This document shows positions 3,400-23,022 of a DNA stretch of 48,921 nucleotides, piece after piece; the first letter of the stretch is position 1; each line of letters begins with the position of its first letter. This DNA is from a virus (lineage: Duplodnaviria > Heunggongvirae > Uroviricota > Caudoviricetes). Made by a program: the position numbers and the translations under genes. Below the pieces are notes generated by a model, which ran no database searches, was not told the origin of the DNA, and was given only the letters and a program-made list of their open reading frames with translations. The stretch lies in the IMG/VR virus record IMGVR_UViG_2778261394_000010. One strand, 5' to 3'.

Positions 3400-4040
3400 T
3401 TGTCGGTATACCTCTCTCGTTTGCTCAGTTGTTCAGGAATATGGTGCAGCAGCTCGCCGTCACCACAGTAAATGGCGGCATGATTCGGCACCGATGAACC
3501 AAAACAGCACAGCAGCACATCGCCCGGCTGTGCCGCTGACAACGGCACCTGATACAGCCCTGTGGCCTCCAGATTATCCAGATAGAGATTCTGGCCGTGA
3601 CGCCACCAGTCATCCCCGCGATGAAAATTCGGCATCTCAATCCCCGCCAGATGATAAGCATCCCGGAACAGCGTGTAACAGTCCGTCACCCCGTGCTCAA
3701 AGCGCCGCCCGGTGAGATGCGGCACACAGCGGAACTTATGAATCGCCCCCCGGCAGACCAGCAACCACGGCAAATCACTCTGCACCTGCAGCCGCCGGTC
3801 AGCCTCACTCAGCCAGGGCAGACCACCGGGGTGGCTGTGGACCAGCGCCACAATCTCACCCTGCATTTCTGCCTGCAGCCAGTCCTCCGGAGCCATCCGG
3901 AAATAATCCTCCGGCTCACCGGAAATATTCACGCAGGGAAAATATCTTTCCCCCTCCGGCGTTCTCACCACGAAGCCGCACGACTCCGCTGGCGCACATC
4001 GCCGGGCGTGCGCCAGAATCGCTGATTCTGTCTCTGTCAT
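3297..4040 (-). CDS. K: Tail assembly protein K
   Basis: Internal ATG at 4038-4040 gives MTETESAILAHARRCAPAESCGFVV…, lambda gpK-like; starts 5 nt after the L stop. Exact start relative to the lambda annotation is uncertain. Confidence 0.8.
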   Translation of the reverse strand: MTETESAILAHARRCAPAESCGFVVRTPEGERYFPCVNISGEPEDYFRMAPEDWLQAEMQGEIVALVHSHPGGLPWLSEADRRLQVQSDLPWLLVCRGAIHKFRCVPHLTGRRFEHGVTDCYTLFRDAYHLAGIEMPNFHRGDDWWRHGQNLYLDNLEATGLYQVPLSAAQPGDVLLCCFGSSVPNHAAIYCGDGELLHHIPEQLSKRERYTDKWQRRTHSLWRHRAWRASAFTGIYNDLAAASTFV

Positions 4041-11011: not shown

Positions 11012-11802
11012 TTACGCCAGTTGTACGGACACGAACTCATCAGGGTCAGCCAGCAGCATCAGCGGTGCTGACTGAATCATGGTGAACTCACGCGCCGGAT
11101 CGCCGGTGGTCACCCAGTTTTTCGGGTAACGGGCAGAGGCGTTAATGCCTTCGCGCTGTGCGTCCGCATCCTGAATGCAGCCATAGGTGCGCAGACCGCG
11201 TGCCTGAGTGTTCCCCAGCACCATCGTGTTGTCCGGCAGGAAGTTCTTTTTGACGCCGTTTTCCACGTACTGTCCGGAATACACGACGATGGCCACATCG
11301 CCATACATCCCCTTATAGGACACCGCTTTACCTAGGTCTTTCACCGCTGTCTCCAGCTCGGAATTAGAGCCACGACGGGTATCCAGCTTTTCCTTGACGG
11401 CTTTGAAGGAACGGAACAGCGCCCAGCCTTTCGGATCAAACACGATGATATTCACCACACCGCTGGCGTTCAGCGCGTAGGCTTCGATATCGTCGGTCGG
11501 GTCATACGTGGACTTGTCACGCTTGCTCCACTCCGTGCCGCCGGACTGCGTGATGTTATTCTCCTCACTGCGGCCCATATCCACCTCAACCGGATCGAAG
11601 GCTTCACCGGTCATGGTGTATTTGCCCTTAAGCACGGCAGAAACTGCCTGCATCTCTTCGACCTGAGCAATGGCCAGCTCTTCGTCACGCATGTTCTGCA
11701 TGATGATGCGACGGCGGCGGTAAGCCGGGTCCGCCAGATTCTGCGGATCTTCATCCGGCAGGCGACGCAGGGTCATCTGCGGATTCACTTCATGCTTCGG
11801 CT
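11012..11802 (-). pseudogene. E: Major capsid protein E, 3' fragment (codons ~83-341), separated from its 5' part by the inserted element
   Basis: Frame reads …PKHEVNPQMTLRRLPDEDPQNLADP… to the normal E C-terminus (…DEFVSVQLA); an in-frame TAG immediately upstream at 11801-11803 marks the insertion junction. Confidence 0.9.
11793..11802. repeat. Left junction core of inserted element (TGCTTCGGCT; rc AGCCGAAGCA)
   Basis: Identical 10-mer recurs at 22723..22732; E-derived sequence is continuous across the two copies once the intervening 10.9 kb is removed. Confidence 0.85.
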
Positions 11803-11874
11803 ACATGAGTCAAATATGAAAGGAACTGAATGATTTTTAATGAAATAAATGGCTCTCTCTATCAAAATACAGCT

Positions 11875-11900
11875 AAAAAGCAATACACGTAGCAATACAG
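11875..11900. repeat. 26-bp terminal direct repeat, left copy (aaaaagcaatacacgtagcaatacag)
   Basis: Near-identical copy (aaaaagcaatacaagctgcaatacag) at 22570..22595 just inside the right junction; contains tandem GCAATACA half-sites. Confidence 0.6.
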
Positions 11901-11929
11901 CGCTTCGCAAAGGTATGTCACTATATCTA

Positions 11930-12865
11930 CTAGTGCCAACCAGAATACGAATATCTTTGCTTTGCTTCTTCTGGGCTCATACCCACTAGTAAAGATACTA
12001 ATTCAAAGTCAGGTTGTGGAATTGGAATCAATGCAGCCAAATATGCTGGCTTATTGAGAACAATTGTTGATAATTTAGCTTTATTCACCTTAGATAACTC
12101 AATATTACTTTCCGCCACCTTCGGGAACTCCATAATAAATGAATTAATTTCCCTTATGAGATAATCGATCAACGCCACTATACTTTCTGTCAAATCAATA
12201 TATTTTGACAACTCACTAGCACCAATTTCTTTCTTTATTTCATCCAATTTAATTTCAAACACTGGCTTGTCTTTACTGGCAATATTAGACAAACGTTTCT
12301 TTAAATCTGAATCAAGCTGATTCCTGACAATTAAACTTTTCAAAACAAAATTATAATTAAACAAAAAAGCATCAATTCGAGCAATATTCCTCCATGAGTT
12401 TCCAATTTCTTCATCTGACGGCATAATAAGTTCATGTTTTAGTATCTTGTACTTAATAAAAAAAACAAACCTCTCAAATAGAGATTTATTAGCTGTGGGT
12501 ATCTTTTTTATAAATGAAAGACGGCTAATATCGTAATTCACCTCCCCGGCGTTAAATAAAAATTCATTTATTGCCAGCGCTCTTAATATCGGATTTCTAG
12601 ATCTCAAACCAATATAACTACTTTTAATTCCCACAAGTGTATTTATCATCTGAAAAGAAACCATCATAAGCGTATTAGCAGAATTAAATTTCTCCGTTTC
12701 TATTTTAATCTTCTCTTGCCTATTATTGATGTAATAAGCAGTTAAGCCTCCCATAAGCGCCGATAAAAAAGATAATGCAATAGGGAATACATAATCTTTT
12801 GTATAATCAACATCTGCTTTCAACATTAGTATTGCTTTAGCAATCAAAACTGCATCAGGGGTCAT
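11930..12865 (-). CDS. Hypothetical protein, AT-rich cargo gene with a predicted N-terminal transmembrane segment
   Basis: Long ORF with low-GC codon usage unlike its neighbours; hydrophobic stretch YVFPIALSFLSALMGGLTAYYI; no recognisable motif. ATG at 12865 preferred over the TTG at 12895 used by the ORF track. Confidence 0.5.
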   Translation of the reverse strand: MTPDAVLIAKAILMLKADVDYTKDYVFPIALSFLSALMGGLTAYYINNRQEKIKIETEKFNSANTLMMVSFQMINTLVGIKSSYIGLRSRNPILRALAINEFLFNAGEVNYDISRLSFIKKIPTANKSLFERFVFFIKYKILKHELIMPSDEEIGNSWRNIARIDAFLFNYNFVLKSLIVRNQLDSDLKKRLSNIASKDKPVFEIKLDEIKKEIGASELSKYIDLTESIVALIDYLIREINSFIMEFPKVAESNIELSKVNKAKLSTIVLNKPAYLAALIPIPQPDFELVSLLVGMSPEEAKQRYSYSGWH

Positions 12866-13565
12866 GTTAGAGCCGTCATTAAAAATTAAACACAATACCC
12901 ATAAAATATAACAGCTTATTGTTTAGAAAAGCAATATCATACACTCTATGATAAGCGTAATATCTGACAGGCATGGTGTGTTACGACACTTAATTAAACG
13001 TAATTTGCTAAAATTTTACACACAGAATCACACCTGGCTCTAACTCTCCTTTCATTACAATTGTAAGCATACAATTATCCTACCAGAACTTTATTGTTGA
13101 GCTCTCCCTTTTGAGCCCATCCCATAATGAATTGACGAAAGAACCGTATCTGTGGAGTAATCATTTCTGCGCGGTTCTATGTCGAAGACAAAATGTGGTA
13201 TGCGCATCTAGTCAGAGGGAAAGCAATTTTTCAGGGAAATATCATCTCTACATGGTTAAGACAACCAGAAGAAGTTATCAAGCAAGTTGGGTATGAAGAT
13301 TTTCCTATAATAGTAACGAAACGGGTTTCACCTGAGCGGTTGTGTTCGATCCGCCACAATACGCATAGGATGCCCTGTAATCCGTATTCTGCTTACTCAA
13401 CAGCTTACCAGCAGGACTCGTAAGGCTGTTGCGATAGTGCAGAAGTAGGCCACGACCATAAAGTGAAGCCAGTGGCGCGTTATCGACTACTTTAGTGTAG
13501 AGCCTGATTTCAACGCAAGCATGAGAGTTTTTTCTGGCGATAGGCCGTGACAAACAGCAACAAAA

Positions 13566-13766
13566 TCAGAGAAAGGAAACGGCAGAGGCCAAAAAGCCCG
13601 TTTTCAGCGCCTGTCATTTCCTTTCTTTTCAGAGGGTATTTTAAATAAAAACATAAAGTTACGGCGAAGAAGAACGGAAACGCCTTAAACCGGAAAATTT
13701 CCATAAATAGAGAAAAACTGCGCGCCTGACGCCCCGTAGCCTGTCAGATCGCCGGAAAGGACCCGC
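13566..13766. other. cos-like site of the inserted element, homologous to the helper cos region but with a diverged cosN 12-mer
   Basis: About 200 bp aligns without gaps to helper 28935..29133 (most positions identical by eye); the cosN position reads cgcctgacgccc (13723..13734) against helper aggtcgtcgccc. Confidence 0.8.
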
Positions 13767-13790
13767 CAGCCAGAGCGGGCCCTAATTTCA

Positions 13791-14174
13791 TCAACCAATC
13801 AGCTTATAGCGACCATCCCGTGCATTGCGGCGTACACGCTCAATCTTGAGGCATAGCGCCGCATCTGGCTTTTTTGGGACAGGTACGCGGCAATATTCAG
13901 AAGCGCGAGGAATATTATTTATCCAGTCGATCACTTCACTTAAATACCAGGCCTTACGCCCTTCCGTAACCTGCACACGCTCCGGGAACTCTCCACTAGC
14001 CTCAAGGTTTAGCAGTGTACGCCGACTCAGGGTTGTAATTTCCATCACCTGATTCATATCAACAAGGCGCTCGCTTAAACACATTTTGTCAGCGATAGCT
14101 TTTAATTCCTCTACAGCTGGATTCGGGTACATCATTTCGGCAATTGGCTTAAGGTCATTGTAATCATTCTGCAT
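13791..14174 (-). CDS. HTH protein with an AlpA/MerR-like C-terminal half, function unknown (regulator or packaging-specificity factor)
   Basis: 127-aa ORF; segment EITTLSRRTLLNLEASGEFPERVQVTEGRKAWYLSEVIDWI resembles AlpA-family HTH; strong SD AAGGGGG; immediately downstream of the D-like gene and upstream of the cos-like site. Confidence 0.55.
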   Translation of the reverse strand: MQNDYNDLKPIAEMMYPNPAVEELKAIADKMCLSERLVDMNQVMEITTLSRRTLLNLEASGEFPERVQVTEGRKAWYLSEVIDWINNIPRASEYCRVPVPKKPDAALCLKIERVRRNARDGRYKLIG

Positions 14175-14185
14175 TGTATCCCCCT

Positions 14186-14527
14186 TTACACACGAGCCAG
14201 CGGCTGAACAGAAATACCTGAGCCAACAAACGCGGCAACCTTTGCCGACAGTTCTCTTACAGACTCAGGCCAGTTCAGAGCATCAACATTTAAAACACCT
14301 GTCTTATAAACCTGTGCCTGTGTTTTTTTCGCTGTGTCGATTTGTACAGCGGAAACATAAACCGCTTTGCCTGCGCTCGTTCCATCCCATACCACTAGCG
14401 CACCAGTTGCATCTTCCTGCATCAGTGGCGTAAACGCAGGTATTACCCCTTTATTGGCTGAAAATATCCCCAGCGTAGTAACCAGTGCTTCAGTGCCAGA
14501 CATGAGTTCAGTGTAATGAGTAGCCAT
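14186..14527 (-). CDS. Head decoration protein, diverged gpD homolog carried by the element
   Basis: 113 aa; …AFTPLMQEDATGALVVWDGTSAGKAVYVSAVQ… parallels lambda gpD …[35 protein letters not shown]…; strong SD AAGGGGGAG. Confidence 0.7.
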   Translation of the reverse strand: MATHYTELMSGTEALVTTLGIFSANKGVIPAFTPLMQEDATGALVVWDGTSAGKAVYVSAVQIDTAKKTQAQVYKTGVLNVDALNWPESVRELSAKVAAFVGSGISVQPLARV

Positions 14528-14536
14528 TGCTCCCCC

Positions 14537-15577
14537 TTAGCCAATGCGAACGGTAACAAAACGATTGATGCGGGCCGGTATTGGCTGTGGTGCTGAATGT
14601 GTCTGCACATATTCAATAGCCGGATCACCAGGCACAATATAGTTTTTCGGTGCAAGTTCGGCTTTAGTCAGCCCCATTCGGATTAGCTCCGGATCCTGAA
14701 TACCGCCATAGGCGACAATCCCCTGAAGAGCCGTATTGCCAAGCACCATCAAATCAGGATCAAGGAAATGTTTTTCAGTTCCGTCCTCGTCGGTATAACG
14801 CCCGCTGTATACAACAATCGCAACATCGCCCATATACCCTTTAAAACTCACCGAATCACCAAGGTCTTTAAGGGCCGTTTCCAGTTCGGAATTAGAACCA
14901 CGACGGGTATCCAGAGCCTCTTTTATCGCTCTGAATGAACGGTATTTCTTCCATACATTACCGCCCATAATGATGATATTAGTGACGCCCTCACTAAATT
15001 CTGCGTAGCTCTCAATATCATCATTTGGATCAAAAGTTTCTTTATCCTTACCTGACCACTCAGCACCGCCAGACTGAGTGATGATATTTTGTGGTTTAAT
15101 ATTCCAGTCCAGCTCATAACGTTCAATACCATCGCCCTCAATGATATTTTTCCCCGTTGTGATTGCCTGAACGGCAAGCCATTCAATACGTGCACGAATA
15201 GCTTTAGCCTGATTTACAATCGCCTGTTTAACTTTAATATTACGCGCTCCAAAAGCATTGTATTGCTCAGGTGATACACCAGCAGGGCGCACAGCTAACT
15301 TATTTGGATCAATGCTGCTTTTCGGCTTCATATAGCCTGGACGAATTGTTTTTGATTCGTACCCTTCGTCACGTGAAACTTTACTACCCACCATAGGAGA
15401 ACAAAACGCTGCAATTGGGATATTTGGATCGTCGATTGTATCAAGAATAATATCGCGCGATTCAAACATTACCGAGCGAGTAAAAAACAAACTGGTAAAC
15501 AACGCATTTAGTTGTTTTTGTACATCTACAGCATTAACCACCTGTACAAGCTGGGTAGGCGAATATAAATCAACCAT
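14537..15577 (-). CDS. Major capsid protein, diverged gpE homolog carried by the element
   Basis: 346 aa from ATG at 15577 (SD AAGAGGA); shares ITQSGG.EWS, TRRGSNSELET and GDVAIVVYSG motifs with lambda gpE but is clearly diverged; earlier in-frame starts at 15583 and 15598 are possible. Confidence 0.85.
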   Translation of the reverse strand: MVDLYSPTQLVQVVNAVDVQKQLNALFTSLFFTRSVMFESRDIILDTIDDPNIPIAAFCSPMVGSKVSRDEGYESKTIRPGYMKPKSSIDPNKLAVRPAGVSPEQYNAFGARNIKVKQAIVNQAKAIRARIEWLAVQAITTGKNIIEGDGIERYELDWNIKPQNIITQSGGAEWSGKDKETFDPNDDIESYAEFSEGVTNIIIMGGNVWKKYRSFRAIKEALDTRRGSNSELETALKDLGDSVSFKGYMGDVAIVVYSGRYTDEDGTEKHFLDPDLMVLGNTALQGIVAYGGIQDPELIRMGLTKAELAPKNYIVPGDPAIEYVQTHSAPQPIPARINRFVTVRIG

Positions 15578-15749
15578 ACGCATCCTCTTTGCATTCATTA
15601 AAAATAATTGTGGATATATGCTATCACCGATATTTGTCATGCGAATACATGCAACCGAGTGCAATGTTGTATAAAGTTTTGGGATGACAACTTCAGCACG
15701 GATAATTAGTGTTAATATCTTCACTCCCTTTGGTCTGGATTTATGTAGC

Positions 15750-15790
15750 ATGCCGGAAAATTTATTTTTTTTCCGGCCTTTTTTATTGGC
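15750..15790 (+). terminator. Hairpin with flanking T-tract (gccggaaaa…ttttccggc + ttttttatt)
   Basis: 9-bp perfect stem followed by a T-run on the plus strand, between the SSB and capsid genes; may act in either direction given the flanking A/T tracts. Confidence 0.4.
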
Positions 15791-15795
15791 AATAT

Positions 15796-16245
15796 TTAAA
15801 ACGGAATATCATCTCCCCATTGCTCATTATCTCCCACTGGTGGATGGCTTCCTTGCTGATCTGCCTGTTGTTTTGCTCTGTTCAGTGCGTCAGTAGCCTG
15901 ACCCTGTTGATCTTTTTTGCCGCCCGGTCGCACCGTTCGCGCACTGATTACGCTGTCTGCGATAACCTGCCAGCCCTGCCGCGTTTCACCGTTCTGTCCA
16001 GTCCACTGGCTCACCTGCATATTACCCGCCACGCTCAGGAGTTCGCCTTTGTGATGCTTTGCCAGCGTGTCGGCTTGTCTGCCAAACGCCAGCACAGATA
16101 ACCACATCGTCGCCGTTCCGTCATCTGCCTGGCTGCATGGCAAAGATACCGCCATCCGTGCCAGTGTCATGGGTGTTCCCTTGCTGGTATGTTTTACCTG
16201 TGGGTCGTCCACCAGCCGCCCGTAAGCTGCTATTTGCGCCGTCAT
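15796..16245 (-). CDS. ssb: Single-stranded DNA-binding protein
   Basis: 149 aa with Gly/Gln-rich linker and acidic C-terminal tail ending DDIPF, the SSB hallmark. Confidence 0.85.
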   Translation of the reverse strand: MTAQIAAYGRLVDDPQVKHTSKGTPMTLARMAVSLPCSQADDGTATMWLSVLAFGRQADTLAKHHKGELLSVAGNMQVSQWTGQNGETRQGWQVIADSVISARTVRPGGKKDQQGQATDALNRAKQQADQQGSHPPVGDNEQWGDDIPF

Positions 16246-16256
16246 GCTGCCTGCTC

Positions 16257-16499
16257 TCAGGACTTAATATTGATGGTTGTCACTTCCTCCGCTTCGGCAA
16301 TCTCCCGTTCGGTCAGCGTGGCAAAGTTTGCAGCCGCCGTTGTCATGAATGCGCTTATCAGTTCGGGATGTGCTTTCGCGTATCCTTCCCCGGCGTTGCG
16401 GTCTATTGCCTTAATCGCCACCCTTAGCCAGTGTTCAGCCATATCAAGGGCGCGGTAATGTGGCTTTATATGTTTGTTCAGTTTTCCTGATGTGTGCAT
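16257..16499 (-). CDS. Hypothetical protein
   Basis: 80-aa ORF between the iteron origin and ssb, co-oriented with the replication operon; no motif recognised. Confidence 0.4.
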   Translation of the reverse strand: MHTSGKLNKHIKPHYRALDMAEHWLRVAIKAIDRNAGEGYAKAHPELISAFMTTAAANFATLTEREIAEAEEVTTINIKS

Positions 16500-16546
16500 T
16501 TTTATTTTTACCCCCTCGTTTAAAAAGTTTTTTGTGCACCACCACC

Positions 16547-16777
16547 TTGTCTACCTTGTCTACCTGATTAGTTATCAGGCCAGTAATGGCGCGGGTTTCA
16601 GGGAGGTAGACAGCCCCAAATAGCTGTCTACCTCATCTCTACCCGTCTCCTTACCTGTCTACAAAAATGGGTAGATAAGGTAGATAACAGGTAGACAGTG
16701 AAAAATAGTTATCTACCTGCATTAATACATTGAAATAAAAGCATTTTATTTCAGTCAGGTAGACAAGGTAGATAACC
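16547..16777. repeat. Iteron cluster, putative replication origin of the element
   Basis: At least 12 copies of GGTAGAYA / TRTCTACC in both orientations, some tandem (ggtagataaggtagataacaggtagacag), with AT-rich spacers, immediately downstream of the primase-helicase gene. Confidence 0.7.
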
Positions 16778-16788
16778 ATTGCCATTTT

Positions 16789-18540
16789 TTATAAAAACGC
16801 ATCGCAATCATCAGTAGTCGTTGCGTTGGTCTGCGTGACTCCCTTAACTTTTCGCGTAATATATTCATATCCGTAAACTTTCGCCGCTGACCTCATAGCC
16901 TTTCCGAACTCATTCACGCTCAAACATTTCCCCTTTCCTGTATATGCCATGAAGGCCATATAGACACGGTAAAGGCTGTTTCTGGTCGTGTACTTCACGG
17001 TGTCACCACCACCGCCCATCATTAGCCCACGAGCTTCCTCCAGAAACTCCAGCGCCGCGCAAAGCTCAACAACCGGATCCGTTTGCTGCTTTATTGCCAG
17101 AGCTTCATCACCGTCACGCTGTTCCAGTAATAAAGCCCGTGCCTTTTCAGGGTCAGCAAAATTAGCCAGCAAGCGGCGGATAATTACGGGGATTTCTGCC
17201 GCTATCTTTTCCGGTAATTCCTTGTCTTTTTCGTCCTCCCTTACAATGTTGTCGAACCGGAAAATCACCCGACGGCGTGACACACCTCCGGCCCGTTCGG
17301 TAAAGATCATCGGGTCGTTATTGGTTGCCAGTACCACCGCCCTTATTATCGTCGTGAATCGCTTCTCATATTTCGGGTTAATTTCAACGGGATCGCCTCC
17401 CGTGATTTTCTTGATGCCCGTGCCTTCCCCCGTATATTTCGGCTGATCGGCAAGGACGATAAGACGACTCCCGACAACCTGCGCACGCCCTCCTGCATCA
17501 TCGAGTGATGTCATCTCTGCGCTTACGGTGTTCTGTTTGCCAGCAAGCAGGGTGGCAATATGGGTAAATGTACTCTTACCGCTTCCCCCGTCTCCGGTGG
17601 CCTCAATGAACATCTGCCAGTCGTACCGGTTCGCCATAATCATGTACAGCGCGGCACATATACGCATCATCTTGCGCGGGTCTTTTCCGGCTGCGTGCTC
17701 AAGCCATTTATGAAAGTTTGGCGCGTTATCGCGGATGTTCTCCCCTGGTGCTGGTGGCGTGTACTCAATGCCGTTGTGCGTGGTGATCCAGTTCTCCGGC
17801 GTGTGCGGGGAAAATTCCCCCGTTTTCAGGTCAAGCGCACCATTGGCGAACGGCAGCAAATCGCCGGACGGCTCGCCCATTGGTTCGGCAATAACTTTTA
17901 ACGCTTCAACGGCGTTATTGATCACGCGTTTGCTGAAAGTGGCCCTGTGCTCTGAATAGATCGCCACCATTTCGCGGCTCAGCTCCATTGTGCTGATCGG
18001 ACACCATACCCCGCCGCGCCATACGTGAACGATTTCACTTTCCGGATGCACACAAACGCCATCAAAGCGCTCGGCAAGCAGCTGCGCGCGCTCACTGTCT
18101 GCCATCTGTGAAAGTTGCGCCTTTTGCTTCGTCGGAAGATTAAGCACCAGGCTTTCCCCACGCTCGCATTCCTCTTTGAGTCGCGGCAACTGGTCGGATA
18201 AATCCACTGGGCTGGTGTCAGTAATCCCCGCGTATTCGTGTACGGTCTTCACTCCAGCCACAGCCAGTAACGTAACAATCTGCGTCATGCTGTGCTCTGT
18301 GATATGTCCTGCGCGGTAAACACGCACACACTGACGATCTTCATCAATGATCCGGTAATCGGTGATGTTTTTCAGTTGCTCATCAGCCAACACGACAGGC
18401 GGCACATCGTCGGCGGCAATATGTTTACCCGCCCATTCCTGCCACTCTTTCGCATGGCTCCACGCATCACTACCTGCAAAGATGATTATCTCTGTCAGTC
18501 TGTCGCGTGGCTGTTTTTTTAAGTTCGGTGCCAGTTTCAT
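16789..18540 (-). CDS. Primase-helicase replication protein (P4-alpha / D5-like, SF3 helicase)
   Basis: 583 aa; Walker A GDGGSGKST followed by a D5_N/SF3-like region (…IVLADQPKYTGEG…LATNNDP…); adjacent to the iteron origin. Confidence 0.85.
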   Translation of the reverse strand: MKLAPNLKKQPRDRLTEIIIFAGSDAWSHAKEWQEWAGKHIAADDVPPVVLADEQLKNITDYRIIDEDRQCVRVYRAGHITEHSMTQIVTLLAVAGVKTVHEYAGITDTSPVDLSDQLPRLKEECERGESLVLNLPTKQKAQLSQMADSERAQLLAERFDGVCVHPESEIVHVWRGGVWCPISTMELSREMVAIYSEHRATFSKRVINNAVEALKVIAEPMGEPSGDLLPFANGALDLKTGEFSPHTPENWITTHNGIEYTPPAPGENIRDNAPNFHKWLEHAAGKDPRKMMRICAALYMIMANRYDWQMFIEATGDGGSGKSTFTHIATLLAGKQNTVSAEMTSLDDAGGRAQVVGSRLIVLADQPKYTGEGTGIKKITGGDPVEINPKYEKRFTTIIRAVVLATNNDPMIFTERAGGVSRRRVIFRFDNIVREDEKDKELPEKIAAEIPVIIRRLLANFADPEKARALLLEQRDGDEALAIKQQTDPVVELCAALEFLEEARGLMMGGGGDTVKYTTRNSLYRVYMAFMAYTGKGKCLSVNEFGKAMRSAAKVYGYEYITRKVKGVTQTNATTTDDCDAFL

Positions 18541-18836
18541 TTTTTGCCCCTGAATGCGTTAATCATGCTTTTCATTTTCTGGATGTTTCCCCGCGCTTTT
18601 TCCCTGCTGATGGGCTTACTGCGGGGTGCGGCATATACCAGGGAAAAATCACGCCGGAACTGATAAACAGGCATCACGCAGTCATAGCTATACCCCTCAC
18701 GACGGTAAGTGATGCGCCGTTCTGCCACGCCTTTAATCGTTACCGTGCCGCCGTATTTATCGCGGTAAATATCGCCGTTCATAAATTCAGGCCGAGCGGG
18801 GCCGCTGGCAATAAAGCCAGAATTTTTCATTTCCAT
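18537..18836 (-). CDS. Hypothetical protein
   Basis: 99-aa ORF whose stop overlaps the primase-helicase start (4-nt overlap), suggesting translational coupling. Confidence 0.4.
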   Translation of the reverse strand: MEMKNSGFIASGPARPEFMNGDIYRDKYGGTVTIKGVAERRITYRREGYSYDCVMPVYQFRRDFSLVYAAPRSKPISREKARGNIQKMKSMINAFRGKK

Positions 18837-18853
18837 ATTATTTATTCCTCGAC

Positions 18854-19075
18854 TTAACTCGACTTATTTGATAGCAGGGCACTATTTATTGCGTCATTGA
18901 GTTTTTCTGCTGCTTCATCAATAAGTGACAACAGGCCATAAGCAATATTTGCATCTTCATTGTCATTTATGCAATCAAGCCACATATTTAATATTGCTTT
19001 TGCTGAATTATTTAAAGTTAATGAACTTTCTGCACATGCTAACAATTTAAAAAAGACTTCCCGTTCTGTATTCAT
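18854..19075 (-). CDS. Hypothetical small protein (AT-rich)
   Basis: 73-aa ORF in the same operon; low GC. Confidence 0.3.
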   Translation of the reverse strand: MNTEREVFFKLLACAESSLTLNNSAKAILNMWLDCINDNEDANIAYGLLSLIDEAAEKLNDAINSALLSNKSS

Positions 19076-19267
19076 TTAATCCCCCACCAGCTTACTTTCT
19101 TCCTCAATCAAAAAACTAGCGACACTTCCCGAAAGACGCGCCAGTAGGCTCGCCAGTGCGGATATATCAGCATCTGTAATTTTGTTCGGGTATACCTCAA
19201 GAAGGCGGCAAATAATTTCTGTCTGGTGCGCACGTTCAGCGGCTTCGTGTAATGTGATTTCCTGCAT
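19076..19267 (-). CDS. Hypothetical small protein
   Basis: 63-aa ORF tightly packed between neighbours. Confidence 0.3.
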   Translation of the reverse strand: MQEITLHEAAERAHQTEIICRLLEVYPNKITDADISALASLLARLSGSVASFLIEEESKLVGD

Positions 19268-19452
19268 TAATGCACCTCTTTTAATTCATACACTGCTGAA
19301 ATAATGACTTGTGATAAGCCATATTCTGATGATTCGCTTCTCACCGCAGCAATAGCCGTCTGAACATTAACAGCCTTCACATTCTGAGCGATACCAATTG
19401 TGTGGCCTATTGGGTTAACAGCTCGGGCAAATACACGGAAGGTTTTAAGCAT
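19267..19452 (-). CDS. Hypothetical small protein, first gene of the element's leftward operon
   Basis: 61-aa ORF directly downstream of the divergent control region. Confidence 0.3.
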   Translation of the reverse strand: MLKTFRVFARAVNPIGHTIGIAQNVKAVNVQTAIAAVRSESSEYGLSQVIISAVYELKEVH

Positions 19453-19832
19453 GACTCACTCCCTGGCGGATTTTTGCAGCGAATACAGCAACACAACCGG
19501 ACGGGCAACGGCTACGCGCTTCGCGTTCCGTCCAGGCGGTTACGTGGATGATTTGAGATTCTCCGGCACTCAGTGCCAGAAAACGCCACACAAAGGCCGT
19601 TTGTGTGTGTACAAGGTGTGGTATATGATTTACAGCAACCATAACGGCTCCTAGTTTACGTTGTTGGTTAGACGCCCCGTATGTGTTCCCAGCACTGCGG
19701 GGCGTTGCTCTTTGTATTTCAACAATCCTTTCGGTGTGTTTCATGTTATGAGCGCATGAAACACACGTCAAGGCTTTTTGTATTTCTTTTTTTGTGTATA
19801 CTGAAACACACCGATGATTAGGAGTTTCAGAA

Positions 19833-20138
19833 ATGGCAACGGCTAACAAAAACGCAAAATCACAACTGACAACTGTCAGAGTCCCACTAGATGTTATGCA
19901 AGGGATGGAATCCGTTAAGCTGGACGGTGAAAGCAATGCCGGATTTATCGTAACCGCCATGCGCGGTGAAATCGCCCGCCGCCAGGCAGAAGGAAGCGGA
20001 GAAAATCCCCTCGTGTCTTCACTGGATACCTTAGCTAAGGTCGAACAAATCGGCATCAAGGCAGCGGAGGAAATCGGGCAACTCGTAGCCGTCGCTCGTG
20101 AAGAACTCCAGCGGCGTAAAGCCAAAGAATCTGAATAA
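19833..20138 (+). CDS. Putative regulator of the element, fold not assigned
   Basis: 101-aa ORF with strong SD AGGAG, transcribed divergently from the replication/capsid operon across a structured intergenic region. Confidence 0.4.
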   Translation: MATANKNAKSQLTTVRVPLDVMQGMESVKLDGESNAGFIVTAMRGEIARRQAEGSGENPLVSSLDTLAKVEQIGIKAAEEIGQLVAVAREELQRRKAKESE

Positions 20139-20488
20139 TTAGTATCAGCGCCGTGATGTGAGTAACTACGGCGCATTGCTATGTAAATACTGGCAATAAA
20201 CAGAAAAGGTAGTTCTACTCCGAATAATTTTATCTGACACTACTCCTGAACTAACATGCGCTTATCTTACAGGATATAAATATAAATCCATAAAATCACG
20301 ATTAAATAAAGTCGCTCCAAACATAAACCACACCCAACGCTTAACAAGATAGCAACAAACAGGTAAATAACTTGCAGAAATATTTATCGCAAGGATTATC
20401 ATTATTAATGACAAATCACTTTACCAAGTCATTCCCCTCTCTTATCATAAAGAGAAAGTAATAAATAAGTTAAGGGAGTTAGAATGCT

Positions 20489-21025
20489 ATGAATCTAAAA
20501 AAAATAGCCACAAACACAAAAAACAAGATAACAGAAACATTTAATAAACTTATATTAGAGGCATCTAAAACCCCCACACAAGATGAAATTAAAATACTTG
20601 AGAGAAGGAGTAAGAAGTTTAATTACTCCTTTTTCTCATACGCAGTCACAGGAGCTATAATAGTTTTTTGCTCTCAACCATTAATTAAATACGCAAACCC
20701 AATACTTATTTTATTGAGTGGTCTGTTACTGTCTATCATCATTATCATTCTCAGAATGATTTATATTTCACAAGCGAATGCATCATGGACAACCAAAAAA
20801 CGCTCACATGTACTAGTTCATTTTCTTTCTGCATGTTTCATAGCATCAACATTGACGTTGCTATATCAGGCTTACGATAATAACATCACACACAAATTGT
20901 ACTGTAAAAATATACAACAACTTATTGAAAAAAGGATAGAAACAGAAAAAAACATCAGCATATTCAGTGGGATGCAATGCACCCCGGTATATGATTACTC
21001 TTTATTTGGATTTAATCTCTTATAA
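20489..21025 (+). CDS. Hypothetical membrane protein, AT-rich cargo gene
   Basis: 178 aa with hydrophobic segments (AVTGAIIVFCSQPLI, ILILLSGLLLSIIIIIL); very low GC; followed by a perfect 13-bp inverted repeat. Confidence 0.5.
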   Translation: MNLKKIATNTKNKITETFNKLILEASKTPTQDEIKILERRSKKFNYSFFSYAVTGAIIVFCSQPLIKYANPILILLSGLLLSIIIIILRMIYISQANASWTTKKRSHVLVHFLSACFIASTLTLLYQAYDNNITHKLYCKNIQQLIEKRIETEKNISIFSGMQCTPVYDYSLFGFNLL

Positions 21026-21034
21026 AGAATGTTA

Positions 21035-21068
21035 TTACTGATTTGAGTACAAATTCTCAAATCAGTAA
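21035..21068. terminator. Perfect 13-bp inverted repeat (ttactgatttgag / ctcaaatcagtaa), probable bidirectional terminator
   Basis: Lies between the convergent cargo gene (+) and the AlpA gene (-), flanked by A/T runs. Confidence 0.5.
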
Positions 21069-21094
21069 TTCATAATATTTTATTCTGAGATAAT

Positions 21095-21331
21095 TTAAAC
21101 TACCCACTCACCTCGAATCCATGCCTGCACTTCTGAAAGACGATATGCAACAGCAGTGGAACCAATCTTGATCCGCTTAGGAAATTTTCCTTCCTTCTCC
21201 AGCTTCCAGCGTGTGCTGTTCGCAAGAGTGGTTAGCTCCCGACATTCTTTCTCACGGATCATTCGGTCAATGTTAGGAATGTACTCCAGACCCTTTTTAT
21301 CAACAATTGCCATTTTTTTCATGTTAACCAA
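21095..21331 (-). CDS. alpA: AlpA-family HTH regulator / excisionase-like protein
   Basis: 78 aa; ELTTLANSTRWKLEKEGKFPKRIKIGSTAVAYRLSEVQAWI fits the AlpA/Xis HTH_17 pattern; immediately downstream of the integrase. Confidence 0.75.
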   Translation of the reverse strand: MVNMKKMAIVDKKGLEYIPNIDRMIREKECRELTTLANSTRWKLEKEGKFPKRIKIGSTAVAYRLSEVQAWIRGEWVV

Positions 21332-22559
21332 CCTTTTGTTTGAGGATTGTCACTTTTGAATCAGCACCTGCGATGCTATTGAGATATGTAGTCCAGAGTT
21401 CCAGAGCATCCAGTTTTTTAGCCATAAACTTACTCCGGTTGTAAACACCTGCCACGCCAGGTAGCGCATGGCCTAACAGTTGTTCTACTACATAAAATTC
21501 AACACCGAGATCACTTAGATGAGTAGATAGCGTTCTTCTAAGGTCGTGTAGTGACCATTGTTTTTCATGGCCCAAACGTTTACCGATTTTCCCCCCAATC
21601 TTGCTTACGCTTTCTCTAATTCGCAGACTTCCCAGCACATAACCAGTATGTTTTGTCTCTTCGTGAACATCCGTTACCCACTGTCGTAGAATTTCAGGTA
21701 CTGGTCTGACGATTTCAACACCAGTTTTTGAGTGATCTTTTGGTACAGTCCAAACCCAACTTTCGAGATCCCATTCGCTCCATTCTGATAATCGGGCTTC
21801 ACTCATTCGACATCCAAATACTGTACAAAGCACAAACATTTTTCGCGTGTATTCAGACATTAGTTTTAAATCAGGCTCGACAAAAATTGCCTTCCAGAGC
21901 TGGCCGAGTTCGGCTTCATCCAGAACCCGATCCCGCTTACCTGCAATCTGCCCCACATCACTCATGCGCAAATCCTTTAAAGCATCACACGTCGCGTACT
22001 GGCGTACCCGACAAAAACGAAGAGCTAATTTAGTGTCAGAAAAAACATACGCCGCCATAACTGGTGCATTACGTTTAATTCGGTCAAAACAGTCCAGCCA
22101 TTCATATAGGTGAGTGTCATTTACGGGCAAATGACCGATATAGGGAAAGATATGCTTTCGAAATCTGCCAAGCGTTACAGCATGAGTTTTACGACGCACC
22201 TTACAGTAATTTTCATACCAGTAATTTAGTGCATCCTCCACTGTAACCGGCTTTAAGCGTTCTTCAGCCTGAATCTTAATCTGGATACGCGGATCACGTT
22301 TGTCAGCCAACCAACCACGGCACTCGTCGCGCTTTTCCCTTGCCTGTTTGAGTGACATATCAGGATATTTACCCAACGTTAGCCAGACCGGAGCAGCCCG
22401 GCCACCTGCTAACCTGTAGAAGAAAACAAAGCTCACAGCCCCTTTAGTACTCACACGAATAGAAAGCCCCTTTCCATCAGCAATGGTGATCTGCTTTTCT
22501 CTGGGTTTCCCCAGATATCCTTTAAGCGCTTTGTCGCTCAGTTTGTTCTCGCCAGCCAT
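21324..22559 (-). CDS. int: Tyrosine integrase (P4-type) of the inserted element
   Basis: ATG at 22559 gives MAGENKLSDKALKGYLG…; C-terminal catalytic region with …HDLRRTLSTHLSDLGV…LLGHA…; about 160 bp from the right junction core. Confidence 0.9.
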   Translation of the reverse strand: MAGENKLSDKALKGYLGKPREKQITIADGKGLSIRVSTKGAVSFVFFYRLAGGRAAPVWLTLGKYPDMSLKQAREKRDECRGWLADKRDPRIQIKIQAEERLKPVTVEDALNYWYENYCKVRRKTHAVTLGRFRKHIFPYIGHLPVNDTHLYEWLDCFDRIKRNAPVMAAYVFSDTKLALRFCRVRQYATCDALKDLRMSDVGQIAGKRDRVLDEAELGQLWKAIFVEPDLKLMSEYTRKMFVLCTVFGCRMSEARLSEWSEWDLESWVWTVPKDHSKTGVEIVRPVPEILRQWVTDVHEETKHTGYVLGSLRIRESVSKIGGKIGKRLGHEKQWSLHDLRRTLSTHLSDLGVEFYVVEQLLGHALPGVAGVYNRSKFMAKKLDALELWTTYLNSIAGADSKVTILKQKVG

Positions 22560-22569
22560 TTTTAGCCCC

Positions 22570-22595
22570 AAAAAGCAATACAAGCTGCAATACAG
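22570..22595. repeat. 26-bp terminal direct repeat, right copy
   Basis: aaaaagcaatacaagctgcaatacag, matching the left copy at 11875..11900 at 24 of 26 positions by eye. Confidence 0.6.
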
Positions 22596-22722
22596 AGATG
22601 ATTGCAACACACAGATAACGAGGAAAATTCAGTGAAAGCACCAGATAAACTTATTCTTTATTATCAAAAGATTAAGTGTAAAAACCAGCAACTACACGAA
22701 AGCCTCAGAAAGCCATGCTAAG

Positions 22723-22732
22723 TGCTTCGGCT
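22723..22732. repeat. Right junction core of inserted element (TGCTTCGGCT)
   Basis: Second copy of the 10-mer; on the minus strand E reads …GTC AAG CCG AAG CAC and then diverges into element sequence (LAWLSEAFV stop). Confidence 0.85.
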
Positions 22733-22967
22733 TGACGTATCCCGGCGTAAATTCAGAGGTGGAGCCGCCACGGGAACGGATAACCTCACCGGAAACAATC
22801 GGCGAAACGTACAGCGCCATGTTTACCAGTCCCGGAATTTGTGAGAGATAGACTTTCTCCGTGGTGAAGGGATAGCTCTCACGGAAAAAGAGACGCAGAA
22901 ACAGCGGATCAAACTTAAATTTCTGCTCATTTGCCGCCAGCAGTTGGGCGGTTGTGTACATCGACAT
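22723..22967 (-). pseudogene. E: Major capsid protein E, 5' fragment (codons 1-82)
   Basis: ATG at 22967 gives MSMYTTAQLLAANEQKFKFDPLFLRLFFRESYPFTTEKVYLSQIPGLVNMALYVSPIVSGEVIRSRGGSTSEFTPGYVKPKH, the lambda gpE N-terminus, then runs into the element. Confidence 0.9.
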
Positions 22968-23022
22968 AAAAAAATCCCGTAAAAAAAGCCGCACAGGCGG
23001 CCTTTAGTGATGAAGGGTCAGG

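Follow-up and report, generated by a model that had tools for sequence, protein, structure and literature searches.

How a phage satellite holds its early (replication) genes in check is the question raised by a short divergent region, positions 19453-19832, of IMG/VR record IMGVR_UViG_2778261394_000010, a Caudoviricetes sequence of 48,921 nucleotides that we analysed as a whole and refer to as the window. The window is an E. coli lambdoid prophage that carries within it a phage-inducible chromosomal island (PICI), and the region studied is the junction of the leftward early operon of this island with two rightward genes. An initial annotation of the region, made from the DNA letters and a list of open reading frames (ORFs), had described it as a 380-bp non-coding control region containing an inverted repeat, a GC-rich hairpin and a third hairpin, with possible RNA-based regulation. 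All three structures are present in the sequence, and the description of a divergent control region of a satellite stands, but the non-coding extent does not: half of the stretch is a missed gene for an Icd-like (host cell division inhibitor-like) protein, and the intergenic gap really covers 190 bp (19643-19832). With moderate confidence, we interpret the region as a two-layer switch at the head of the PICI early operon, in which an Arc-type repressor and its operators are combined with a SymR-like antisense RNA (Table 1).

A predicted antisense RNA opposite the start of the Icd-like gene

The Icd-like protein matches NCBIfam NF033153 with 63.7 bits (E 1e-17), and its gene is the first of the leftward early operon, with a Shine-Dalgarno sequence, GGAG at 19651-19648, five bases before the ATG at 19642-19640. 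When the region was compared by blastn with 5426 E. coli genomes, the stretch around the GC-rich hairpin proved to be its most widely shared piece; the DNA to the right of the hairpin is replaced wholesale among relatives, and the first ORF past the hairpin is Icd-like in nearly all of them. A blastn search of a phage collection returned no relative of the region. A contig search with the 65-aa Icd-like protein found a single locus, hence cross-species sampling was drawn from viral contigs together with E. coli records. Scanning viral contigs with a pattern for the hairpin's outer stem yielded more than 119 loci with 27 distinct hairpin variants, in which the apparent "loop" is a covarying inner stem.

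We aligned 66 distinct viral-contig sequences, each covering the hairpin with 50 nt before it and 10 nt after it, and RNAalifold folded this alignment into two stem-loops. The first consists of an outer helix, A(G/A)C(C/U)A paired with UGGUU, that closes a 5-bp helix, and the second is the long hairpin. In the trimmed alignment 96.4% of stem cells can pair, against 34-57% when the partners are slid, and 82 cells carry double changes, against 33.7 in shuffles, a value reached in none of 500 shuffles and a statistic that is inflated by kinship among the aligned sequences. Compensatory changes are found at five pairs, including those of the helices P1 and P1b of the first stem-loop (CG 32 and AU 25 at one; AU 30, UA 27 and CG 1 at another) and the inner stem of the second (GC 49 and CG 14, with CG, UG, UA, GC and GU at the next pair). 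In addition, a Shigella relative that was found independently of the search pattern carries a compensatory A-U in the outer stem.

The strand on which this structure is formed can be read from its wobble pairs. Read as plus strand, 253 cells of the alignment are G·U wobbles that would become A·C on the minus strand, and a single cell shows the opposite; at one position where either C·A or U·G would have satisfied the search pattern, U·G is common and C·A never occurs. Folding agrees with this: the plus strand of 19634-19718 (85 nt) folds at -33.6 kcal/mol with a z-score of -4.49, compared with -1.27 for the opposite strand, and the leader transcribed from the leftward promoter (PL) has a z-score of -0.44 as a whole. 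The earlier proposal that the GC-rich hairpin acts on the plus strand is therefore borne out, and the structure belongs to an RNA antisense to the leftward transcript.

From these data we predict a plus-strand RNA of about 76 nt, of which the GC-rich hairpin would be the 3' stem-loop and whose 3' end falls, with some uncertainty, at roughly 19707-19716. The hairpin is longer than first described and contains one bulge and a loop of 3 nt; UUGCUCUUUGUAUUUC comes after it. As an intrinsic terminator, which is how it had been annotated, it has the required strong stem but a tail that is only moderately U-rich, and the terminator scan called only a sub-stem. The T-rich 14 nt after the hairpin also form one copy of a near-identical direct repeat (GCTCTTTGTATTTC and GCTTTTTGTATTTC, at 19707-19720 and 19773-19786), the second copy of which lies just upstream of the PL -35 box, where a -35 box of the rightward promoter (PR) would fall.

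A putative promoter for this RNA lies inside the Icd-like coding sequence. The pattern TAnnnT (columns 7, 8 and 12 of alignment A3) is kept in all 66 distinct relatives, 7 nt upstream of an invariant A, in forms that include TATGAT, TATGCT, TATAAT, TAGACT, TAATAT, TACGAT and TAAGCT, and the peptides encoded across it vary among relatives (NHT, QHT, KST, DIT, IVT, QLN). The first 15 or so codons of Icd-like genes are CA-rich, with runs of His, Thr and Gln (19590-19640 in the window, and likewise in relatives), and they fall into several unrelated "leader types" that recombine freely with the hairpin types. This suggests that the 5' end of the Icd-like gene is shaped by the constraints of the antisense promoter and RNA rather than by the protein.

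Since it is encoded opposite the PL leader, an RNA starting at 19637 would be perfectly complementary to codon 2, the start codon (19642-40) and the Shine-Dalgarno sequence (19651-48) of the Icd-like mRNA, making the Icd-like gene its candidate target. In the minimum free energy (MFE) fold, the apical loop of the first stem-loop (19647-19658) bears the anti-Shine-Dalgarno sequence CUCC (19648-19651), and the anti-start CAU (19640-19642) lies within the 5' arm.

This architecture resembles that of E. coli SymR, which is reported to overlap the ribosome-binding site and start codon of symE and to act chiefly through a block of translation (PMC4147584). In about 100 plasmids of Klebsiella, E. coli and Salmonella, the match to the window is confined to 19636-19720, the predicted RNA. 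In one of these plasmid relatives (L126) the Rfam symR model (RF01809) aligned over its full length, on the predicted strand and at the predicted coordinates, with 25.9 bits (E 0.0024), which is the best symR score among the relatives and compares with a gathering score of 61; the window's own copy gave no match to this model at E<=10. Conversely, a covariance model (R1) for which the 66 island sequences were the sole input aligned over its full length to 19637-19712 of the window (68 bits, E 1.4e-15) and scored 75.9 bits on plasmids. Applied to the E. coli K-12 locus, it found symR at 3836-3915 with 25.8 bits (E 1.7e-4; model positions 1-78), in agreement with the strand of the annotated gene (3836-3912). 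In a control over 1.07 Mb of related mobile DNA, R1 gave no off-site match of at least 24 bits, the extra matches being genuine additional copies. The two models thus detect each other reciprocally, the symR model doing so via the plasmid relative and not the window's copy.

The two RNAs also share their layout. Both are predicted or known as cis-antisense RNAs of about 77 nt with a promoter in the first codons of the target; in both, the last base of codon 2 is complementary to +1, which in K-12 symR is likewise preceded by a -10 box, TAGAAT, at a distance of 7 nt. Both have two stem-loops with the anti-Shine-Dalgarno sequence in the first, neither ends in a canonical U-tract, which fits the variable tails seen among the relatives, and in both the promoter of the target, repressor-controlled at symE and probably so in the window, lies directly beyond the 3' hairpin. 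They differ in the target, which is the AbrB-fold protein SymE in K-12 and the Icd-like protein here, and in the control of the target promoter, by a LexA box at symE and by TGAAACACAC repeats beside an Arc-like gene in the window; unlike symE, moreover, the window target heads a satellite replication operon. The window RNA is thus, on the strength of this sequence similarity, most likely a distant relative of SymR, and we call it SymR-like rather than a member of the SymR family because it falls below the Rfam threshold and has another target and another form of transcriptional control. Mechanisms in which a cis-antisense RNA controls a toxic first gene are already known, and the case in the window is a divergent variant with a new target and setting; we found no literature that links SymR with Icd-like genes, PICIs or satellites. 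RNA-based regulation, as initially suggested, is therefore likely, but in the form of a SymR-like cis-antisense RNA.

In this post-transcriptional layer of the proposed switch, a constitutive promoter in the first Icd-like codons would produce the RNA with its two stem-loops, the loop of the first would present the anti-Shine-Dalgarno sequence, and pairing would block translation of the division inhibitor from any mRNA that escapes repression, as SymR does for symE. Through polarity, the RNA would probably also lower expression of the downstream primase and replication genes.

The topology, which is that of symE/symR, and a small target protein with a toxic-family name could also be taken to indicate a type I toxin-antitoxin (addiction) pair that works by itself to stabilise the island, with no role in its immunity or induction. 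We regard this as unlikely, given that the replication operon begins with the target, which sits directly under a probably repressor-controlled promoter, and that the cassette also heads non-toxin genes, for example upstream of a plasmid WYL/BrxR-BREX operon. More doubtful is the idea that the GC-rich hairpin is a structural element without a discrete small RNA, either a plus-strand terminator or insulator against stray antisense transcription or a 5' stem that stabilises the PL mRNA. The terminator-like features that the scan finds on the plus strand and the position of the hairpin, about 30 nt from the predicted PL start, would suit such an element; it would leave unexplained the second conserved, covarying stem-loop with its anti-Shine-Dalgarno sequence just upstream, the invariant -10 box at fixed spacing and the full-length architecture common to SymR, and the G·U asymmetry excludes a stem of the minus-strand mRNA. 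This makes a purely structural role distinctly unlikely.

Repeated motifs, divergent promoters and a candidate Arc-like repressor

Beyond the 3' hairpin of the predicted RNA lies the inverted repeat, which had been placed at about 19733..19772 with 12-bp arms and is confirmed as GTGTGTTTCATG (19734-19745) and CATGAAACACAC (19755-19766), complementary at 12 of 12 positions across a 9-nt gap. A third copy, missed in the initial annotation, is found at 19802-19814 (TGAAACACACCGA) and is the perfect 13-nt complement of 19731-19743. All three instances of the exact 10-mer TGAAACACAC in the 48.9-kb window fall within 78 bp. Folded as RNA, the inverted repeat has a z-score of -5.5, far beyond chance.

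The repeats coincide with promoter elements. One arm covers the spacer beside the -35 box of PL and the other covers the -10 box and the predicted start at about 19736; the -35 block is conserved across relatives as CTTGA(C/A)(A/G). The third copy starts at the last base of a putative -10 box of PR, an element that was not called by the promoter scan. Relatives show the same two-site layout with motifs of their own. In a survey of 84 loci with 21 different N-termini of the rightward protein, each N-terminus was accompanied by its own repeated 9-13-mer at the same positions: LTTVRVP (the window) with TGAAACACAC, MTTVRIP with TGAAATACAC, QLNARFP with TGAATCGCAC, QISIRIP with CTGAATCACA, YQMRLPEEF with GGTAATTACC, TFQLRINPEL with ACGTACGTAC and MLPIRIP with ATATGCCTAT. 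Such co-variation is the pattern that would be expected of repressor/operator pairs. Since they overlap both promoters and co-vary with the N-terminus of the adjacent protein, the three copies are probably operators.

The rightward protein itself is a 101-aa member of the YlcI/YnfO family, for which several observations point to an Arc-like, ribbon-helix-helix repressor. It belongs to phrog_949, and its positional equivalent on plasmids, also in phrog_949, additionally matches the "Arc-like repressor" family phrog_228; some homologues are named "Arc-like DNA binding domain" in UniRef. In the structure model, an extended segment is followed by two helices and then by a long helix, and hhalign places the protein in register with Arc at R-x-P, although weakly. 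Because this alignment is weak and fold searches with the protein were uninformative, the ribbon-helix-helix assignment is plausible at most. Even so, the statement that no classical repressor is evident nearby is probably wrong, because the YlcI/YnfO protein looks Arc-type, with N-terminal variants that track the repeat motif, and the repeats are probably its operators.

In the transcriptional layer of the switch, the divergently encoded YlcI/YnfO protein, probably an Arc-type repressor, would bind the three copies of TGAAACACAC. Two of these copies make up the inverted repeat, which spans the spacer, -10 box and +1 of PL, and binding there would shut the leftward operon; binding to the third, just past the -10 box of the repressor's own promoter, would autoregulate the repressor gene. 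A combination of this kind is known from phage P22, where the immI region pairs the ribbon-helix-helix repressors Arc and Mnt, acting on overlapping divergent promoters, with the sar antisense RNA over the ribosome-binding site of ant. The likeness lies in small ribbon-helix-helix repressors coupled to a short cis-antisense RNA on the ribosome-binding site of the controlled gene; that gene is an antirepressor in P22 and Icd-like here, and the sequence comparison between the two systems consists of the weak Arc alignment.

The repeats might instead act as an RNA attenuator with alternative hairpins, or be iterons or recombination sites. The segment 19731-43 indeed has two possible pairing partners, 19755-66 and 19802-14, and the fold shows both. 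Nevertheless, the PL hexamers lie inside the repeat, so that most of it is not transcribed from PL, in relatives such as L002 the motif is present as two direct copies with none inverted, and the motif tracks the N-terminus of the adjacent Arc-like protein; the origin of PICIs is reported to lie downstream of pri (PMC10111431). We therefore consider these alternatives very unlikely and retain the operator interpretation.

A number of points weigh against the two-layer switch, in addition to the kinship among the aligned sequences and the sub-threshold symR scores given above. The start, the 3' end and the very existence of the RNA are predictions. Its promoter lacks a good -35 box, and the sigma-70 scan missed it because of this weakness. 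The U-tract after the hairpin is variable and, in many relatives, poor. The invariance of the outer stem is uninformative, because the pattern used to search for relatives fixed that stem. Linkage of neighbouring DNA contributes to the co-variation of motif and protein and could partly explain it. Finally, the presumed toxicity of the Icd-like protein is taken from the name of its family.

Table 1. Features of the control region and of the island that carries it, in window coordinates.
Feature	Coordinates	Strand	Details
Predicted SymR-like cis-antisense RNA, about 76 nt	19637-19712	plus	covariance model, covariation, G·U strand test, fold
Predicted -10 box of antisense RNA promoter, TATGAT	19624-19629	plus	7 nt upstream of predicted start A19637; within Icd-like codons 5-7
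Stem-loop 1 of predicted RNA	19637-19669	plus	19637-19646 pairs with 19659-19669; MFE fold and consensus helices P1, P1b
Stem-loop 2 of predicted RNA (GC-rich hairpin of the initial annotation)	19671-19706	plus	core arms 19672-79 and 19698-705; 3'/terminator-like hairpin
U-rich tail GCUCUUUGUAUUUC after stem-loop 2	19707-19720	plus	nearly exact repeat at 19773-19786 (D4)
Icd-like (host cell division inhibitor-like) gene, 65 aa	19445-19642	minus	NCBIfam NF033153, RefSeq annotation, translation
Hairpin CACACAAA-N5-TTTGTGTG	19587-19607		within codons 12-19 of Icd-like gene; z-scores near chance
Leftward promoter PL	19743-19771	minus	-35 TTGACG (19771-19766), 17-nt spacer, -10 TAACAT (19748-19743); promoter scan
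Operator-like inverted repeat	19731-19766		covers PL spacer, -10 box and +1
Putative PR -10 box TATACT for YlcI/YnfO gene	19797-19802	plus	GTATACTGA conserved in several immunity types
Third operator-like copy TGAAACACACCGA	19802-19814		starts at last base of putative PR -10 box; 45 bp from copy at 19757
YlcI/YnfO-family gene, 101 aa	19833-20138	plus	NCBIfam NF041551; candidate Arc-like (ribbon-helix-helix) repressor with long C-terminal helix
Integrase gene	21324-22610	minus	island
AlpA-family gene	21095-21331	minus	island
Icd-like gene, then small ORFs and DUF4222 gene		minus	island; after AlpA-family gene in transcription order
D5_N/DUF5906 primase gene	16789-18540	minus	island
SSB gene, then the island's own capsid E and decoration genes, then second AlpA-like gene		minus	island

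Comparison with P4- and P1-type immunity RNAs

The initial annotation had pointed to the small processed immunity RNA of P4-type satellites as a possible model, and this idea is not borne out. None of the Rfam families C4 (RF01695), isrK (RF01394) and c4-a1b1 (RF03163) is found in the window at gathering score or around the region at E<=10; more generally, the Rfam scan gave no match in the whole window at gathering score and only chance matches around the region at E<=10. The same scan applied to P4 as a positive control recovered C4 with 74.9 bits and isrK with 60.8 bits, and R1 in turn found no RNA in P4 (best score 12 bits). Since the predicted RNA lies on the strand opposite the operon, it would be a cis-antisense RNA and not one processed from a leader.

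The likeness to these systems is one of position and logic. In P1 (c4) and P4 (CI), as proposed for the window, an RNA blocks the first translated gene of the early operon, icd in P1 and kil/eta in P4, from the same position in the element. The C4 and CI RNAs, however, are made from the strand of their target, are processed from its leader and act by pairing of short loops, whereas the window RNA would come from the opposite strand and be fully complementary. Both kinds of system can also coexist, in that isrK and C4 are found in about 6 of 124 related loci (about 5%), downstream of the hairpin module and on the operon strand, so that a few relatives of the window locus carry C4/isrK and SymR-like systems in series. 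In a few relatives, L028 (10284-11173 minus) among them, the leader ATG opens a single ORF that spans the isrK and C4 RNA genes and continues into the Icd-like coding sequence. The Icd-like N-terminus in the window (MVAVNHIPH-LVHTQTAF) looks like such a leader joined directly to icd without the RNA genes, a difference that may stem from a deletion or an insertion.

That the window itself uses a CI/C4-kind RNA processed from the leftward leader, with premature termination at leader hairpins, is thus extremely improbable: although the operon starts with an Icd-like gene, much as the P1 immI region does with icd, isrK and C4 stand downstream of the same hairpin in about one in twenty related loci and Mageeney et al. 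2023 report C4/isrK matches in some PICIs (PMC10111431), the explanation is largely refuted by the Rfam comparison with P4, the structure conserved among relatives belongs to the other strand, and the minus-strand leader shows no unusual degree of folding.

The embedded island and the spread of the cassette

The remaining structure of the region, a hairpin described at about 19577..19600, does exist, a few bases from those coordinates, at 19587-19607. Its fold is no better than that of shuffled sequence (z-scores of -0.40 on the minus and -1.47 on the plus strand), and it is found only in relatives that encode HTQTAFVW there; it is probably incidental. The hairpin shows a terminator-like form on the minus strand, and a role as attenuator of the leftward transcript was rejected in view of its ordinary energy and its tie to the HTQTAFVW peptide. 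A 46-aa plus-strand ORF at 19681-19821 likewise found no support.

The prophage carries its head and tail genes on the minus strand, and the island of about 11 kb (window about 11789-22720) sits inside its major capsid gene, which is split into fragments at 11012-11788 and about 22692-22994. Read in transcription order, from high coordinates down, the island encodes an integrase, AlpA, the Icd-like protein and small ORFs, a primase, SSB and capsid proteins of its own (Table 1). Its gene content and its insertion into capsid gene E match those of helper-embedded PICIs of the "11capE" type, and it is such an element; the arrangement is already known, as Mageeney et al. 2023 described it (PMC10111431). 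According to that paper and to the account of Gram-negative PICIs by Fillol-Salom et al. 2018 (PMC6092414), such islands share int, alpA, a D5-like primase, SSB and their own capsid E/decoration genes with the window, activation by AlpA and C4/isrK RNAs are described in some islands (the C4/isrK matches by Mageeney et al. 2023), and the global repressor of Gram-negative PICIs is called unclear (Fillol-Salom et al. 2018). The passages of the PICI literature covered, these two papers among them, describe neither an antisense or SymR-like RNA nor a YlcI/YnfO operator module.

Two further positions in the island vary among relatives. At its late end, a cargo position in the window (11930-12895 minus) encodes a 321-aa protein without a Pfam or PADLOC match, and the near-identical island of E. 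coli strain 104 carries a DUF262 and HEPN pair there instead; the position looks like a variable, possibly defence-related, hotspot. Downstream of ylcI, a rightward gene for a 178-aa protein (20489-21025 plus) has no significant family match, with a sub-threshold match to DUF443 and nothing in PHROGs or PADLOC, and in relatives the genes at this position are of AntA/AntB antirepressor, SWIM or HicB-like type. PADLOC gave no matches for the control-region proteins or the cargo gene.

The cassette is widespread, with blastn relatives in 1189 of the 5426 complete E. coli genomes and in about 100 plasmids. Among the RefSeq and PLSDB entries listed, the stretch is annotated as a protein feature or not at all, and never as an RNA; in the literature, the hairpin sequence was found only in unrelated primers. 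Conjugative plasmids carry an Arc-like gene, an inverted repeat of their own (ATGTAATGTGT/ACACATTACAT), a SymR-like RNA and an ORF starting MAGSQHTQTRPEFTWRFL, as exemplified by the S. Typhi plasmid pK91 (L126, 2097-2817) and by pNL194 (L125). On pK91 the cassette lies directly upstream of a gene for a WYL (BrxR-like) protein, which is followed by DUF1819 and DUF1788 (BREX) genes, and the first ORF keeps only the Icd-like N-terminus. Elsewhere, two complete modules stand in tandem about 740 bp apart (L079, 561-1801, with second R1 matches in L043, L044, L085 and L090), each with its own Arc-like gene, repeat motif and SymR-like RNA, and the second module heads an Icd-like ORF whose N-terminus is identical to that of the window.

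More tentatively, these observations may be drawn together into a wider hypothesis, in which Gram-negative PICIs are silenced by a portable cassette made up of an Arc-like repressor gene, variant-specific operators, a promoter, a SymR-like RNA and the first ORF. This cassette would also have been recruited in front of defence operons, such as the BrxR-BREX operon on plasmids, and the symE/symR pair of K-12, which lies in the restriction "immigration control" island, would have branched off from it and become domesticated. Because the RNA exists with several leader types, it may also work in trans, against incoming elements that share its type, as a true RNA immunity.

The proposed switch suggests how such satellites stay silent. 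For the quiescence of Gram-negative PICIs, the region offers two candidates that can be put to the test, a repressor whose operators can be identified, and an antisense RNA. It would also recast SymR, so far a chromosomal curiosity standing by itself, as founding member of a widespread kind of regulatory RNA in mobile elements. The cassette, through the presence of the same module upstream of BREX, ties the control of satellites to that of defence islands.

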